Part shown: positions 51,097 to 63,384 of the stretch, in pieces
How positions within the stretch are numbered: the first letter of the stretch is position 1
Layout: each line of letters begins with the position of its first letter
Source: Gammaproteobacteria bacterium
GTDB lineage: Bacteria; Pseudomonadota; Gammaproteobacteria; Eutrophobiales; Eutrophobiaceae
DNA length: 64,000 nt
Assembly: GCA_965243205.1 (NCBI GenBank)
Contig: CBDEUK010000002.1
Coordinates: forward strand, 288,001 to 352,000
Direction of reading: 5' to 3'
Position numbers and translations under genes: made by a program
Notes under the pieces: generated by a model
The model's input: the letters and a program-made list of their open reading frames with translations, nothing else
Told to the model about the DNA's origin: nothing
Database searches by the model: none

Positions 51097-51124
51097 TTAT
51101 CGCATAATGTATATTATGTTAAAT
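51097..51124 (+). other. dif: Chromosomal dif site (XerCD) = prophage attL
   Basis: TTATCGCATAA-TGTATA-TTATGTTAAAT; spacer and XerD arm identical to the E. coli dif. Confidence 0.95.
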
Positions 51125-56566: not shown

Positions 56567-57544
56567 TTAAATACGGTCTGAAGAACCGCCGATAATCTCT
56601 TGTACGATAATCTCCGCTTGGTGATTCGCGCCGCCGTTCACATCCATGAACAGGTCGTATGCTGCGACCTCGGATAACTCGTGACCATGACCCGGCATCG
56701 AGCGCGGTGCTAAATCGATGAAGTACACACCCGTCCGAGGCGTTGCGATTTCATGGTTCATTGAATAACGAGCCTGATTCATTGCGCCCGTTTCCTTGAA
56801 TCGGACTTCTGAATCGGTCTCAACAATCAAGCTGTTGATGATGTCGTTCGCACGAACACCGTTGTCACGAGCAATGACCATTGCCGACATCACCATGCGA
56901 TTTTCGCCTGACAATAAGTCGACTTTTAATCGGTCATTGGTGTTGTTGATGTTGACTAAAATGGTACGTTCACGATGCAACGCGTAGTTGTTTTGTAAAC
57001 TGTTATTACGCACTAAGTCATGACTCATGACTTCAATGGTCGGCTCGACAGTCCAACTTAAAACAGTTGTTCCCGCTGGCGTTACTAAGTCGCTCGCATC
57101 GCCCCAATCCACGTTTAGAGTAAAACTGGTTACTCCGCCCTCGCGTGTCGCATCAAGCAATGTTGCATCTTGAGCGGCTCCGGCTTCAGGCATCCACAAC
57201 GGGATAGAGAAATACGCCTCAAATGGACGGTCACCTGTCGCAGTTCCCGGCGCGACGTTGTACGGCACAACACGGCCGCGACGAATATTTAATTCTTTGA
57301 GCGCCTTACCCGATAACGTTTTGACTGGTACGTTACCGTTGACCATGATTTCTAAATTTTTAATCAAGCTGAACGGCGCGTCTTCCAATACTGCGGTTGC
57401 CGCCGCCGTACCGATATTTAACGTACCTGATAATCGACAGTGAATTTCACGATACACGCGACCTTCATGCAGATTGATAAAACCCTGTGCATTTTGAGCG
57501 TAATTCAAAATGTCTTGAGAACGACGATAAGCAGTAATACCCAT
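56567..57544 (-). CDS. Double jelly-roll major capsid protein (PM2 P2-like)
   Basis: INLHEGRVYREIHCRLSG, LIKNLEIMVNG, YFIDL, QAEIIV align with PM2 P2 segments as recalled; all-beta; follows the ATPase. Confidence 0.8.
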   Translation of the reverse strand: MGITAYRRSQDILNYAQNAQGFINLHEGRVYREIHCRLSGTLNIGTAAATAVLEDAPFSLIKNLEIMVNGNVPVKTLSGKALKELNIRRGRVVPYNVAPGTATGDRPFEAYFSIPLWMPEAGAAQDATLLDATREGGVTSFTLNVDWGDASDLVTPAGTTVLSWTVEPTIEVMSHDLVRNNSLQNNYALHRERTILVNINNTNDRLKVDLLSGENRMVMSAMVIARDNGVRANDIINSLIVETDSEVRFKETGAMNQARYSMNHEIATPRTGVYFIDLAPRSMPGHGHELSEVAAYDLFMDVNGGANHQAEIIVQEIIGGSSDRI

Positions 57545-58454: not shown

Positions 58455-59091
58455 GTGTACTTTTCTCCGCTTCCGCCCATGATGGTGCGTTAATCTCCGC
58501 CTCTTTGAATGCGGCTGGTTTTTCAGATTGTTGACTGGAATTGCTCTCGACTGGCTGACCATCTTCAGGCCATAGCACGGTTACTGTTGCTAGTAACAGT
58601 GGCCCAAAAAATAACGCGGCCGACATTTCATCGGATACTTTGCTGAGTGATTGAGCACTGTTACCGAATAAGGCTTTGAAATACGGCTTTTCCATGATGG
58701 GCGCTAATTTACTCGCACCCTCTTGGATGATGTCCGGCGTATAGATAGCCGCCATTTGTGGGTACTGCATCGACAGCGCAGCCACGACCGTTTCTATCAA
58801 TACCTTTGCGGCTTTACGGTTTTCTTCGAGTGCATCCTCTGGCGTGATGACCGTACCTTCAAGACCCGGTACACCACCGCCCTCTTGATTCGATTCAACC
58901 TGTGCCGCTCTCGCTTTTAAGTTTGCGAACGGGTCAGCGGTTCCACCATGTCCCGGTTCGGTCGAGCTCTGACTCGTCGTTTGGTTCTGGCTCTGGTTCT
59001 GGGTCTGACTCTGGCTCTGTTGGCTCGACCGGGTCGAGGTTTTCTTCTTCGATTTCTTCTTCGTGACTTTCGTCTGGGTCTGGTTTTCCAT
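58435..59091 (-). CDS. Phage protein with low-complexity N-terminus and a TM near the C-terminus
   Basis: 218-aa ORF filling the gap before the ATPase; TM AALFFGPLLLATVTVLW; start uncertain. Confidence 0.65.
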   Translation of the reverse strand: MENQTQTKVTKKKSKKKTSTRSSQQSQSQTQNQSQNQTTSQSSTEPGHGGTADPFANLKARAAQVESNQEGGGVPGLEGTVITPEDALEENRKAAKVLIETVVAALSMQYPQMAAIYTPDIIQEGASKLAPIMEKPYFKALFGNSAQSLSKVSDEMSAALFFGPLLLATVTVLWPEDGQPVESNSSQQSEKPAAFKEAEINAPSWAEAEKSTHASKRK

Positions 59092-59275
59092 CGTCTATAG
59101 GTCTCATACGTTGTCGGATTAATTGGTCGGATTTATTGGAACGGGCGAAGTGCTGAGAGCCACACGCGCCGCATGTATACGTGGCCCACTTACGTTTTGA
59201 CGATTGCTTTACGATGCATTCCGCGCCACAGTTAGGGCAATCGATTCGCCCGATGACATTCGTCGGCTCAGTCAT
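58934..59275 (-). CDS. Zinc-ribbon protein, putative late transcription activator
   Basis: CPNCG...CGACG; GAGG RBS; acidic tail; position like PM2 P14. Confidence 0.65.
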   Translation of the reverse strand: MTEPTNVIGRIDCPNCGAECIVKQSSKRKWATYTCGACGSQHFARSNKSDQLIRQRMRPIDDGKPDPDESHEEEIEEENLDPVEPTEPESDPEPEPEPNDESELDRTGTWWNR

Positions 59276-59426
59276 TTTTAAGCACCTCTCTGAGTAGTAT
59301 TACCAGCTCCAACATCAACGGAATCGCACGTTGTTGAGCAAACAACATGCGGGAACCTACCGATTCATTGGCTTTGGTTAATTCGGCTTGAATAGCCTGT
59401 AATTGTTGGTCGATATCAGGGTTCAA
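59268..59426 (-). CDS. 52-aa helical protein (not in ORF track)
   Basis: GGAGG RBS, TTG start overlapping the Rep stop; [21 protein letters not shown]...LLREVLKND. Confidence 0.65.
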
Positions 59427-61027
59427 AGTGTTACCTCCGGCGGGGGTTGTGATAATTCGTGAAAATTTACGGGGGTAGCGGGTAATTCCCGCGTACAGTT
59501 ATTGACAGGACTCCAAGGGGCGTTTTGTTTTGAATCTCGTACAACACGCCACTCATGGAGTCTGGTTAAGATCACGTCAATGTTATCGGTCACGCCGTAA
59601 ACGATGTCACCTATCGGCTCACCATAACGACCCGGTTCGTCCGACCATGATTTACATACGTGAATTTTCAGATTTTTACGTTGTGTAACAGGGCCACCTT
59701 GTGCACGTACGTAATCAGCCCAGTTACCCACATCAGCGGCATAGCGTACGCGTTCAATCGATTCGGAATCGACTTCGTTACGTAAACGACGAAGTTCACG
59801 CCACACCCCAACAGGTGGGCCGCCGATTTGCTGGAACTGTCGTATACCCCACGCACTCGCCCACGCTCGGACGAGTGCAGCGGCTTTTATGTCAGCATCT
59901 TCGAGGCCTTCCCCGTCGATGTTCTTTGAAATGTACTTTGCAATGTAGGCGGTCGCCGACCCTTTGGACGGGTCGATTTCCTCAATTTTTAATCGGTGCT
60001 CTTTGGCCCCGGGTTCGTTTGGGGTGTCCTTAATGGCATGATGGAATAGAACGTCTTGAACGTCGGCACGTTGTTCATTAGGCATGAATAGCAACATATG
60101 CCAGTGGGGGCAGCCATCGTGATGCGGCTCAGCGATTCTAAATCCGAAAACTGGTAAGCCTTGACGATGTAACTTTGCTCGGACTCGCGACCACACACCG
60201 CACAGATATTGCTGTGAGTCTCGTGGTGTTGCGCCGTTGTAGTTCGGGTTTTCATTTCCTGTTTTCGATAGCCTTGCATGAAACCGTGACGGACACGTTA
60301 ACGTATAAAAATCGGCAACGTATCCCATGTCATTCGCTATTGTTTCAAACCCAGATAATCGACACATCAATTCGTTACGTCTTAGTGCCGGGTTCGATAC
60401 TGATAGCTCCTGCAACTCTGACAACGTGTATTCCTGACCGCTGTCATTGATTGCTATCATAGACTCTAAAAACGCTTTATTCCTTTGTATCGCTAATTGA
60501 ACTCGCTCAACTGTGCCATGACTCACATACTTGCTAGCCTTACAATGCACCATGCCGTTATCAATCGCGGCCGACTCTTGCCGTCTGGTTAAATCTTTTC
60601 GTAACTTACGTGTCCACCAATCAATGCATCGAAGCCGCGCCAATCTCGCATCCATTGGCAGGGTATCGCGAGGCGGTTGAATACCTGAACGCAACGCCAC
60701 CTGTTCACAGCTGCTAATATCATTACCGTACAACTTCACGCGCCCCACTCTATCGACAGCGAACGCACGCACGTCATCGTCCTTTGAATCAAGCCCTAAA
60801 CGGTCGCTTGCATAATTCGTTTCAATGTCTAAGAGGTAATGATTCGCTTTTTGTGACGAGACACTTTCATGTATTTTTTTATACGTTCCAGCGATAACAT
60901 CGCGTAAATCATCGGCTAATTTTGTGAAGATACGTCGACGAAATAACTTGTTGTCACGACCGACCCTATCATCTGGAAAACCCGCAAATATTAGCGGGTC
61001 ATCGATTAACAGCTCGGCTCTAGCCAT
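59423..61027 (-). CDS. P2 gpA-like rolling-circle replication endonuclease (HUH)
   Basis: [34 protein letters not shown] (two Tyr), [24 protein letters not shown]. Confidence 0.95.
59495..59522 (-). other. Putative rolling-circle nick origin inside rep
   Basis: CGCCCCTTG^GAGTCCTGTCAATAACTGT resembles the P2 ori (CTCG^GAGTCCTGTCAA) as recalled. Confidence 0.65.
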
Positions 61028-61176
61028 ACGACTTCATCGCCTTCAACTTCGGTAATTTCCAATTCATCGGCATTCACATCACAAAGAAAATGCTCAACGA
61101 TTAACGGTGAATCGAGCCGCTCAGGACACAAGTCAATGACTCGGTCGAGGGCCGACCTAAACTCACGCAACGTCAT
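61006..61176 (-). CDS. 56-aa acidic hypothetical protein (not in ORF track)
   Basis: [21 protein letters not shown]...WLEPSC; GAGG upstream; overlaps both neighbours. Confidence 0.55.
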
Positions 61177-61357
61177 CCATCACCTCGAACACCTCGTCCA
61201 CTCGCTCAACTGTCATGCGATGGTAGTTACCTTGGATACCGAATAAAGTGGGTTGAAATACGACTATGGAAATGGGTTTGATATGGTCTCGGATACCGAC
61301 AATCATCGCCGTCATTAACGGCTCTGTTCGGCCCTTCAATCGTGTGCCTACGTGCAT
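61163..61357 (-). CDS. Phage hypothetical protein, first gene of the leftward operon
   Basis: GAGGA RBS; 64 aa. Confidence 0.6.
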   Translation of the reverse strand: MHVGTRLKGRTEPLMTAMIVGIRDHIKPISIVVFQPTLFGIQGNYHRMTVERVDEVFEVMDDVA

Positions 61358-61443
61358 CGAAATTTCCTCATATTGATTAATTTTTTATCGGAACTCGAAA
61401 CAAGGAGGAGGCCCGAGAGCTAATCGGGCCAAAAATTTCGATG

Positions 61444-61507
61444 TTCCAGCAATACCAGATAAGCGGAGATTTTGGGGAATCAGCACAACATCTAGTGGTT
61501 GCTGGAA
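61444..61507 (-). ncRNA. Putative antisense leader hairpin targeting the repressor RBS
   Basis: TTCCAGCAA/TTGCTGGAA-closed hairpin with a CCCCAA loop; contains TTGTGCTGATTCCCC, complementary to 61602-61616. Confidence 0.55.
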
Positions 61508-61511
61508 AAAC

Positions 61512-61540
61512 AGAATAGCTAAGTCACGCTTAACTAGCAA
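61512..61540 (-). promoter_or_regulatory. Leftward (lytic) sigma70 promoter
   Basis: TTGCTA-N17-TATTCT; overlapped by the palindrome CAAGTC-T-GACTTG (61538-61550). Confidence 0.6.
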
Positions 61541-61615
61541 GTCTGACTTGAACTTCAATTGCTTACAAACATCAATTACACTTGACTATAACAACAATTA
61601 AGGGGAATCAGCACA

Positions 61616-61993
61616 ATGAACACAATTGAAACATTGGACGCCATAAGTCGTTGTAATAACAACTGTACTGACTACAGAATTGCAAAAATGATGGGTGTTT
61701 CCACCTCTAGGGTCTCTAACTGGCGAAATGGCAAGAATTCTATGGATGATGAAGCCCGAATCGCCGCCGCAAAGTTACTAAACCAAGACCCAGAAACACA
61801 ACTAGTTTATGGACAGATGGAACGGACAAAATGTCCAGAGGTGAAGTCCGCATGGATGAATTTAATCGAACGTTCAAAGGTCGCCGGTTTCATTCTAGCC
61901 CTATTTTTAACCTTTGGAATGACATTCACTAATTTTGAAGGTGCAACGGTTGCAGCAGCAGAAAGCGCGAACGGTGTATATTATGTTAAATAA
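61616..61993 (+). CDS. HTH repressor (DUF3693/inovirus-type) with TM tail, ending inside attR
   Basis: TDYRIAKMMGVSTSRVSNWRNG HTH; ER..CPEVKSAW; TM VAGFILALFLTFGMTF; divergent from rep. Confidence 0.85.
   Translation: MNTIETLDAISRCNNNCTDYRIAKMMGVSTSRVSNWRNGKNSMDDEARIAAAKLLNQDPETQLVYGQMERTKCPEVKSAWMNLIERSKVAGFILALFLTFGMTFTNFEGATVAAAESANGVYYVK
61964..61991 (+). other. attR: dif-like site with a degenerate XerC arm
   Basis: AGCGCGAACGG-TGTATA-TTATGTTAAAT. Confidence 0.9.
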
Positions 61994-62040
61994 CGTTATT
62001 ATATTCTCATCTATTAATGCTTTTAACGTATCTATTTATT

Positions 62041-63384
62041 TTATATGAGGTATTTTTTACGCTTACGCCAGAGCGTTGTTCTACTCATTCCTAAAATTTC
62101 GGCTGCTAATTCCAGATTTCCATCTGAATCCAACAAAGCTTGTTGGATCTTTTTCTTTTCTGTTTTTAAGCCTGAGTATGTATTTAATGATTGTTCGGCG
62201 TGTCCAGTATTAAGAAATTCAGGTGGCAAGCACTGTAAATTCATAACATCTGATTGACTTACTGCATTGGCATATTCAACAACATTACGTAATTCACGTA
62301 TGTTTCCTGGCCACGGATAATTGAGTAATACACGCATTGCTTCCGGTGCAATATCGTTAATTTTTGCCTCTCCTCTTAGTTTCAGGTCACTTATAAAGTG
62401 ATGAAGTAATAAAGAAATATCCATTGTTCTTTCTCGAAGTGGCGGTATAAATAATGGGACGACACGTAAACGATACATTAAATCTTCACGAAATTTACCT
62501 TCCTTAACACGCTTACGTAATGATTGATGAGTTGCAGCAAGTATTCGTATATCTACTTTTTTTACAGTTTCACCTCCAACAGGAATCAATTCTCGTTCTT
62601 GAATAACACGTAATAATTTAGCTTGCAGATCCATTGGTATTTCAGCGACTTCATCTAGGAACAATGTGCCTCCATCGGCCCTTTCAATAATCCCTGTGTG
62701 ATTACGTATTGCATCAGTAAATGCGCCTTTAACATGACCGAATAACTCACTTTCTAATACTGAGGAGCTAAGCGAGGCACAATTAATTGCCATAAACGGT
62801 TTACCTGAACGTAAACTTTCTGCATGCAGAGCTTTAGCGACTAATTCTTTGCCGGTTCCTGATTCTCCACGTATCAATACACTTACATCAGTTTTTGCAA
62901 TATTAGATATCAGTTTAAAGCTCTCTTGCATCGTTGCATCGACTGAGAGTAATCCATGAAAGGTTTTTTGTCCGGCCAGATTCTTTTCTACTTTTTGCTC
63001 AATTTCAGAGTTATCTGGAATAAGAACTTCTAAGCCTCCATCAAATTCACCATGAGTATTTCGATAAGCAATGGCATATTTTCTAACAGGAACAATATGC
63101 CCATCAGAATGATATAGTTTGATTGCATAACCATTGATTTGACCGTGTTGATCGATACCACAACCTGCGACGCATTGCTGGCATCGATTACCTGCCAGAC
63201 AGCTTTGCCCTATTAGGTCAGATGATTTATAACCCAATACTTTTTCAGCGCCTTCACTCCAGTATGTGATATGGCGATTTTTATCTACTGAGAACACGGC
63301 CGCAGTAGGAAAAAGCATCGCAAGTTGTTCTAAAGCTGTTTTATCCAATGATTTACTCTTTCTATTTGTTTCATTATGTTTCAA
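62041..63384 (-). CDS. PAS-domain sigma54-dependent activator (start uncertain)
   Basis: GESGTGKE, ESELFGH.KGAFTDA, LFLDEV, WPGNIREL, Fis HTH; Cys cluster in the PAS domain. Confidence 0.95.
   Translation of the reverse strand: MKHNETNRKSKSLDKTALEQLAMLFPTAAVFSVDKNRHITYWSEGAEKVLGYKSSDLIGQSCLAGNRCQQCVAGCGIDQHGQINGYAIKLYHSDGHIVPVRKYAIAYRNTHGEFDGGLEVLIPDNSEIEQKVEKNLAGQKTFHGLLSVDATMQESFKLISNIAKTDVSVLIRGESGTGKELVAKALHAESLRSGKPFMAINCASLSSSVLESELFGHVKGAFTDAIRNHTGIIERADGGTLFLDEVAEIPMDLQAKLLRVIQERELIPVGGETVKKVDIRILAATHQSLRKRVKEGKFREDLMYRLRVVPLFIPPLRERTMDISLLLHHFISDLKLRGEAKINDIAPEAMRVLLNYPWPGNIRELRNVVEYANAVSQSDVMNLQCLPPEFLNTGHAEQSLNTYSGLKTEKKKIQQALLDSDGNLELAAEILGMSRTTLWRKRKKYLI

Follow-up and report, generated by a model that had tools for sequence, protein, structure and literature searches.

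A 15-nt sequence repeated in the control region of a small prophage may link the two divergent early transcripts of that prophage by antisense pairing in trans: its upstream copy lies near the predicted 5' end of the leftward, lytic transcript, and its downstream copy forms the ribosome-binding site and start of the gene for a putative repressor. The prophage lies in a 64,000-nt stretch of DNA from a gammaproteobacterium of the family Eutrophobiaceae (contig CBDEUK010000002.1, positions 288,001 to 352,000), here called the window, whose own coordinates are used throughout. Among the explanations of the repeat that are weighed below, the trans-antisense link is the best supported, and we give it about even chances. 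The duplication itself, which recurs with different sequences in homologous loci, is beyond chance.

The repeat and the repressor start

The repeat, GGGGAATCAGCACAA, is present in exactly two copies in the window, both on the plus strand (61474–61488 and 61602–61616), and the downstream copy begins with a GGGG Shine–Dalgarno sequence and ends on the A of the ATG that opens an open reading frame (ORF) at 61616–61993. A preliminary description of this DNA had reported both copies at the same coordinates. In a longer register, the copies agree at 18 of 20 positions (ATTnnGGGGAATCAGCACAA). The ORF, on the plus strand, encodes a putative repressor or regulator of 125 amino acids (aa) with an N-terminal helix-turn-helix (HTH) and a C-terminal hydrophobic segment.

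Read from the minus strand, the upstream copy and two further nucleotides that allow G–U pairing (61474–61490) make up a segment of the leftward leader, at +16 to +32 with the RNA sequence UGUUGUGCUGAUUCCCC, that is complementary to the repressor's translation initiation region (TIR) and is therefore referred to as the anti-TIR. Its target, on the plus strand at 61602–61618, contains the downstream copy and runs from the GGGG (61602–61605) through the AUG (61616–61618). Opposite GGGGAAUCAGCACAAUG, which is −14 to +2 from the A of the AUG, the leader can pair without interruption over 17 bp, by 15 Watson–Crick and two G–U pairs – numbers that exactly reproduce those of the preliminary description – and both of the mismatches flanking the repeat are G–U-compatible. 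When the upstream region was shuffled, none of 500 shuffles gave a match of at least 15 nt to the repressor TIR. In cofolding, the duplex between the two RNAs is preferred, with a free-energy difference (ddG) of −11.5 kcal/mol, unfolding costs included. A complementary partner for the anti-TIR within its own leader or operon was not found with up to three mismatches allowed.

The predicted lytic leader

The leader would start at a candidate promoter for the replication operon, TTGCTA-17-TATTCT (61512–61540, minus strand; hexamers at 61535–61540 and 61512–61517), which the preliminary description had named and which is indeed present, with a predicted start near 61505. It matches the consensus at 8 of 12 positions and is the sole minus-strand candidate with at least 8/12 in 61400–61630. 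From this start, a predicted 5'-terminal hairpin of 60 nt (61446–61505, minus strand) presents the sequence CCCCAA (61472–61477) as its apical loop. Its stems – CCAGCAA/UUGCUGG, ACUAGAUG/UAUCUGGU and GAUU/AAUC – and its loop match those of the hairpin drawn by hand in the preliminary description, and the computed fold (minus strand, 61436–61505) reaches −23.8 kcal/mol, against a shuffle mean of −10.5 (z −5.04; none of 200 shuffles as stable). The CCCC of the loop has an unpaired probability of 1.0. Because three of the hairpin pairs are G–U on the minus strand only, that strand folds better in the window than the plus strand (−26.2 versus −20.4 kcal/mol).

An intrinsic terminator was considered for this hairpin and rejected, since no U-tract follows it and the terminator scan lists none on the minus strand in 61358–61510. 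Rfam covariance models gave no match at E ≤ 1 on either strand of 61100–62100, and YUNR U-turn motifs, sought by eye in the loops, are not consistently present.

On the other side, a candidate repressor promoter, TTACAA-18-TATAAC (61563–61592, plus strand), is weak, was picked by eye and is absent from both promoter scans. A repressor mRNA starting near 61599–61600 would carry the target of the anti-TIR at its extreme 5' end.

Recurrence of the duplication in homologous loci

The test for such duplications was applied to 26 loci encoding homologues of the window repressor, the window included: the TIR was defined as the stretch from −22 to +9 around the repressor start, and the region 40–330 nt upstream was searched for the longest perfect match to it on the same strand. 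The loci came from a metagenome scan (L005, L006), IMG/VR (L007–L009), a scan based on the replication initiator Rep (L073), deposited phages and plasmids (L090–L094) and 400 genomes of the same class (L098–L112). The Rep-based scan supplied 80 loci, of which a hidden Markov model of the repressor family matched one (L073), and the other 79 were excluded; L105 and L111 were dropped from the count as their start codons were not placeable. With L005 and L006 being close kin, and L100 and L110 being different sequences from the same genome, five lineages were counted. Exact-peptide scans of genome and viral contig collections returned no close relative, and the nearest proteins in the protein database, P0002 (47% identity, on a 10,044-bp contig) and P0003 (43%), lie outside the TIR test.

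Six of the 26 loci carry a copy of 10–15 nt (window 15, L007 13, L006 12, L005 11, L100 10 and L110 10, or 13 with its flank), each equalled by at most one of 200–500 shuffles. Every copy matches the TIR or 5' untranslated region (UTR) of its own repressor gene, on the same strand and 128–195 nt upstream of it (spacings of 128, 135, 143, 147, 191 and 195 bp). The duplicated sequence is specific to the lineage – GGGGAATCAGCACAA, GACGATGAATTC, TCATTGGGGAATG, CAATGGACGG and (AAA)GCAATTGTTC – and the part of the ribosome footprint that it covers also varies by lineage (−16 to −4, −14 to +2, −4 to +7 and −25 to −13). As a control, the TIR of one locus was compared with the upstream region of another, and none of the 644 pairs reached 10 nt, the longest match being 9 nt. 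The covariation of the two copies in relatives, which the preliminary description had proposed as a check, is thus found in five lineages, each with its own, different TIR or 5' UTR copy.

In seven loci (window, L007, L005, L006, L073, L092 and ST79), promoter-like hexamers allow a leftward start from which the complement of the copy would fall at +16 to +40 of the transcript; in L100 and L110, both from one genome, it falls at +76 to +101 of the predicted leader. The promoter hexamers of L005 and L006 are conserved (TTGCGA or TTGCGC; TATGGT) while the spacer between them has strongly diverged, which is the pattern expected of a real promoter. Near-consensus promoters occupy the equivalent place in L073, L092 and ST79, the one in L073 and L092 being TTGACA-18-TATTCT, whose −10 element is identical to that of the window (AGAATAG on the plus strand).

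An anti-Shine–Dalgarno sequence is displayed in the apical loop in three lineages (CCCCAA in the window, CCCC in L007 and ...CAACCCCG in L073/L092), whose hairpins begin a few nucleotides from the predicted start; between L073 and L092, the outer stem is retained despite several changes in both arms. The anti-TIR of L005 and L006 instead forms the 5' arm of a GC-rich hairpin that leaves a GAAUUC toehold free, and a 1-nt deletion in L005 leaves 13 bp of pairing via one G–U pair. Cofolding, with unfolding paid for, gives ddG values of −18.8 (L006), −12.1 (L005) and −12.7 kcal/mol (L007). The leader of L110 runs for ~150 nt from an 11/12 promoter to an intrinsic terminator and contains two antisense segments, one of 13 nt against −25 to −13 of the repressor mRNA and one of 8 nt against its AUG.

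Two further arrangements were seen in these relatives. At 1824–2013 of L110 (genome G384), the near-consensus promoter is followed ~150 nt on by the strong intrinsic terminator, upstream of the first lytic ORF; lytic expression would accordingly depend on read-through, and RNA ending at the terminator would be released as a free antisense small RNA (sRNA). In L006 (427–436 and 657–668), the divergent first genes share their TIR as an inverted repeat, GACGATGAA, and the same holds for L100 (1861–1878 and the repressor start; ATGGAC..AAAATGCTAAAC). Since the first leftward ORF shares the TIR of the repressor in both loci, one leader segment could pair with both.

Proposed mechanism and alternatives

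In the trans-antisense reading, the leftward promoter would drive the replication operon from ~61505, and the RNA of this operon would open with the 60-nt hairpin, whose CCCCAA loop and upper 5' arm could pair with the ~17 nt at the start of the repressor mRNA. The CCCC of the loop would nucleate on the single-stranded GGGG, and pairing would then zip along the 5' arm, in the manner of RNA-OUT and RNA-IN of IS10. The resulting 17-bp duplex would occlude the 30S binding site and may form a substrate for RNase III. Firing of the leftward promoter would reduce repressor synthesis; in a lysogen, excess repressor mRNA would titrate leaky leader RNA; and the two RNAs would constitute a stoichiometric layer of mutual inhibition on top of the protein repressor. 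That the minus strand is the acting one is favoured by the three G–U pairs of the hairpin, the G–U-compatible flanks in the window and the 13 bp that L005 keeps through a G–U pair. The sequences, the computed fold, the favourable energetics and the recurrence in several lineages are established here; where transcription starts, whether the RNAs pair in vivo, how translation responds and in which direction control runs are all points that we infer.

The preliminary description had cast this arrangement as a hypothetical 'RNA Cro' switch, in which the repressor blocks the lytic promoter and the lytic leader blocks translation of the repressor. One part of that idea stands, in that the complementarity between leader and repressor TIR is real, sits in a strong hairpin at the predicted start and recurs in five lineages; the replacement of Cro is unproven. 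The accompanying statement that no obvious Cro-like HTH gene lies leftward also held up, as neither Pfam nor PHROGs matched the 64-, 56- and 52-aa leftward ORFs of the window, and the first leftward ORFs of L006, L007 and L092 are likewise without a Pfam or PHROG family. AlphaFold2 single-sequence models of the first two leftward ORFs of the window, ORF1 and ORF2, have predicted local distance difference test (pLDDT) scores of 60.5 and 53.7, which is low confidence, and contain no three-helix HTH; the ESM Atlas offered no usable match for ORF1. Given the lack of family matches and the low confidence of the folds, a new type of protein Cro may exist among the small leftward ORFs. Rather more doubtful than the antisense link itself – a tentative extension of it – is the existence of a Cro-less class of switch in tailless dif-integrating phages and other prophages with this HTH repressor family, in which leader and repressor mRNA would neutralise each other by base pairing at the repressor ribosome-binding site (RBS), the decision would be set by an RNA–RNA titration threshold and the antisense segment would be kept matched by co-evolution of the short duplicated sequence.

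Several observations weigh against the trans-antisense link. Twenty of the 26 homologous loci have no significant repeat (4–8 nt only). All transcription starts are consensus-based predictions, and the leftward promoter of the window is weak enough, at 8/12, to be unlisted by a scan with a threshold of 9/12. The architecture is heterogeneous: the anti-TIR spans loop and arm in the window and L007, occupies a stem arm in L005 and L006, and sits just ahead of a terminator in L100 and L110. For L007, folding of the region is more favourable on the plus strand than on the minus strand (−37.1 versus −28.5 kcal/mol), and the copy (TTCATTGGGGAATGAA) is a 6-4-6 palindrome to which a protein dimer could bind. 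In the P2-like lineage from Burkholderia, the match amounts to 7–8 nt, a length that 15 of 300 and 68 of 300 shuffles also attained, and the loop could pair just as well with a site in its own leader. Pairing in cis may also be a coexisting or even the primary role in L006 and L100.

The palindrome of L007 would suit an explanation at the level of DNA, namely that the two copies are twin operators, bound by the HTH repressor or another protein, one downstream of each divergent promoter, for lytic repression and autoregulation. Each copy is found no more than ~30 bp downstream of a predicted start, the C repressor of P2 is known to use direct-repeat operators, and identical operators would co-vary just as an antisense pair would, so that covariation alone is insufficient to dismiss this alternative. 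We nevertheless consider it unlikely, as the repeat is non-palindromic in the window, L006 and L100, its position relative to the start codon varies by lineage instead of being fixed to the promoter, and the six spacings share no helical phase. Moreover, separate triplets of palindromic, operator-like sites lie between the promoters of L100 and L110 – which argues that the TIR copies are not operators in those loci – and the window has a palindrome of its own over the −35 hexamer. Hairpin context, strand asymmetry and G–U-compatible flanks would all be left unexplained by binding to double-stranded DNA. A protein-bound operator, which the preliminary description had itself set against its proposal, is therefore weakened by the non-palindromic copies, variable positions and separate palindromes, with the L007 palindrome still in its favour.

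The upstream copy might act in the same sense as the TIR, on a plus-strand transcript (either an extended 5' UTR of the repressor or a short ORF upstream), as a decoy, standby ribosome site or regulator site; it opens short plus-strand ORFs in L006 (28 aa), L005 and L007, and a plus-strand hairpin would show GGGGAAU in its loop. This seems improbable to us: the window copy continues with AAC instead of ATG and so starts no ORF, the short ORFs of L005 and L006 are frameshifted relative to each other, hence not conserved as protein, the scans find no plus-strand promoter upstream of 61474, and in the window the plus strand folds worse. A conserved small plus-strand ORF was rejected as a candidate on the grounds of the differing frames in L005 and L006 and the missing start codon in the window. 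There is similarly little to make us expect a leader element acting in cis only, with the hairpin merely stabilising or attenuating the replication-operon mRNA and its likeness to the TIR having no function in trans. The whole leader is admittedly highly structured (z −4.55) and, through a second module described below, sequesters the start of ORF1; in L006, L100 and the Burkholderia lineage, the leader element could also pair with a site elsewhere in the same RNA, and a leader terminator is present in L110; yet the 15+2-nt match of the window is specific to the repressor TIR, with no leader partner within three mismatches, and from a purely cis-acting element one would not expect the repressor TIR to be tracked by its copy in five lineages. 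Least probable by some distance is a single-stranded DNA (ssDNA) structure, such as a single-strand origin or recombination structure of a rolling-circle genome. The element does encode a GPA-type rolling-circle initiator, it is probably integrated by Xer in the way of filamentous phages, and the hairpin would form equally well as ssDNA; the identity to the repressor TIR would then be left unexplained, however, the hairpin contains no dif-like sequence, the prophage junctions are elsewhere, and in five lineages the hairpin begins at, or a few nucleotides from, the predicted transcription start.

Further features of the control region

The divergent control region that holds the repeat is 258 bp long. 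Its leftward boundary is ORF1 (64 aa, 61163–61357, minus strand; no family match), ahead of which the leader contains the second module mentioned above (61355–61443, minus strand). Here, CAUCGAAAUUU (61443–61433) pairs with AAAUUUCGAUG (61365–61355, with the ORF1 start codon), the two being complementary at 11 of 11 positions; CCUCC pairs with the ORF1 Shine–Dalgarno sequence GAGGA, and the long-range stem of 11 bp encloses a GC hairpin at 61410–61430. The unpaired probability is 0.03 for the ORF1 Shine–Dalgarno sequence and 0.0 for the AUG, and opening of the 5' hairpin leaves this masking unaffected. With both elements sequestered in the model, the first cistron of the lytic operon looks translationally masked by an independent leader module.

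A perfect 13-bp palindrome, CAAGTC-T-GACTTG (61538–61550), overlaps the −35 hexamer of the leftward promoter. This sequence (CAAGTCTGACTTG) is a candidate for the true operator, apart from the 15-nt repeat. More ACTTGA and AAGTC half-sites, likewise candidate operators, occur at 61521, 61546 and 61580.

As to the repressor itself, the 125-aa protein scores 19.9 bits with HTH_3, below the 23-bit Pfam cut-off, and matches phrog_638 ('transcriptional regulator') at E 5e-19. The hydrophobic stretch, delimited by eye, covers about residues 89–104, and a C-terminal hydrophobic segment is also present in P0002–P0004, L005 and L006; this suggests a membrane-anchored repressor. Distant homologues are found in filamentous phages (RSS20 ORF13, Vibrio K04M1, f237-like), P2-like Burkholderia phages and an 11.9-kb plasmid of Vibrio gazogenes. 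Beyond the right prophage junction, in host DNA, a promoter-like sequence, TTAAAA-17-TATAAT (10/12; 61998–62026, minus strand), is aimed leftward into the repressor gene, within which there is a terminator-like site (61690–61705, minus strand). With this pair, the repressor gene could be transcribed in antisense from host DNA; alternatively, both sites could be chance matches.

The prophage

The element is bounded by a 17-bp direct repeat, TGTATATTATGTTAAAT (51108–51124 and 61975–61991), of which the genome has no third copy. The flanking repeats lie ~10.9 kb apart, and the G+C content is 46.3% in the element versus 36.4% in the remaining window. At the left junction, the repeat is part of a dif-like site of 23 nt (51102–51124, plus strand), which occurs at about one copy per genome in 13 of 20 related genomes and thus behaves as the chromosomal dif site; we take it to resemble the dif sequence of E. 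coli. The copy at the right junction (61975–61991, plus strand) corresponds to the core and right arm of dif and overlaps the repressor gene at its final codons and stop. With the junction repeats located at 51108 and 61975, the 15-nt repeat was rejected as a phage attachment (att) site. A recombinase or integrase domain was not found among the element ORFs scanned.

To the right of the control region there is a single gene, that of the 125-aa regulator. The leftward genes, on the minus strand, comprise three small ORFs, a GPA-type Rep, a zinc-ribbon protein, a P-loop ATPase and ~12 ORFs without family matches. The main gene of this operon is the GPA-type rolling-circle replication initiator (59423–61027, minus strand; PF05840, E 1.8e-88; phrog_91); the ATPase matches phrog_2666 (E 7e-22), and a 325-aa ORF at 56567–57544, which may be the double jelly-roll major capsid protein of such phages, has no Pfam or PHROG match. 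Downstream of Rep, the zinc-ribbon ORF (58934–59275, minus strand) weakly matches HVO_2753, Elf1 and TFIIB-type ribbons and has an equivalent in L007; we presume a likeness to the late-transcription factor P14 of PM2. By its flanking dif repeats, the absence of a detected recombinase, its size, the combination of Rep and ATPase, and its layout, the element is, as judged from sequence, a tailless prophage of the PM2/NO16-like kind – an integrative mobile element exploiting Xer (IMEX) – inserted at dif, probably by XerCD.

Relation to known systems

Marine bacteria are reported to harbour tailless temperate phages of ~10 kb in abundance, and the lysis–lysogeny control of these phages is, to our knowledge, essentially uncharacterised. 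Antisense RNAs, including sar, OOP and c4, are known accessories of phage switches, and we know of no case in which the lytic leader serves as such an RNA and acts in trans at the start site of the maintenance repressor. A short, sequence-defined RNA–RNA contact provides a handle that is directly testable by compensatory mutations; if true, the arrangement would be a compact, orthogonal and programmable switch motif, with its own pairing sequence in each lineage.

In the lambda- and P2-type switches with Cro or Cox, Cro acts on DNA at the repressor promoter. The effector proposed here would resemble Cro and Cox in being the first product of the lytic transcript and in shutting off repressor production, and would differ from protein Cro in being an RNA that acts on translation. 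For the pairing itself, the closest parallel is RNA-OUT of IS10, a stem–loop whose loop nucleates on the 5' end of RNA-IN and whose arm pairing covers the Shine–Dalgarno sequence and AUG, with translation blocked as a result. The proposed pairing would likewise start loop-first at the extreme 5' end of an mRNA and proceed along one arm over the Shine–Dalgarno sequence and AUG. RNA-OUT, however, is cis-encoded and overlaps its target, whereas the promoters of the window appear back to back (predicted starts at ~61505 leftward and ~61600 rightward), without the overlapping transcripts of a cis-encoded antisense pair, and the complementarity stems from a copy 128 nt away; and RNA-OUT is a separate sRNA, whereas the predicted regulator here is an mRNA leader.

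The element shares its general plan with two groups of phages, as far as the available texts describe them. NO16-like vibriophages have dif-like sites and probably integrate by XerCD (PMC9966536), and PM2 has a divergent early-operon layout and replicates by the rolling-circle mode (PMC1950889). With both it shares a genome of ~10 kb and DNA-binding genes that diverge from the rest (PMC9966536, PMC1950889), with NO16 also the dif-like sites suggestive of XerCD integration – a likeness by genome layout and sites (PMC9966536) – and with PM2 the rolling-circle replication, the PM2 repressors P15 and P16 being of different origin (PMC1950889). The term 'antisense' has 0 occurrences in the available text of PMC1950889 and PMC9966536, supplementary files aside, which may hold NO16 transcript maps, and literature searches brought up no report of a lytic leader antisense to a repressor TIR in tailless or Xer-integrated phages.

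Among the antisense RNAs of phages, P22 sar and lambda OOP are small cis-antisense RNAs that overlap their targets, ant and cII (PMC12197685). They share with the proposed mechanism the post-transcriptional tuning of lysis–lysogeny regulators, and differ in that, in the source's available text, neither targets the TIR of the maintenance repressor from a lytic leader. A nearer relative is c4 of P1 and P7, described in the same text as a trans-acting antisense RNA with recognition sequences in loops that controls a lysis–lysogeny regulator at its ribosome-binding site (PMC12197685); the short duplicated complementary segments, the recognition through loops and the RBS as target are all common to both. 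According to that text, c4 keeps immunity by blocking an antirepressor and is processed from the operon of its own target. The window has no complementary site in the leader's own operon within three mismatches, as a mechanism of the c4 or P4 CI type would have, and the target is the divergent repressor gene: in contrast to c4, the RNA would come from the opposite, lytic operon and is predicted to act on the repressor rather than an antirepressor.

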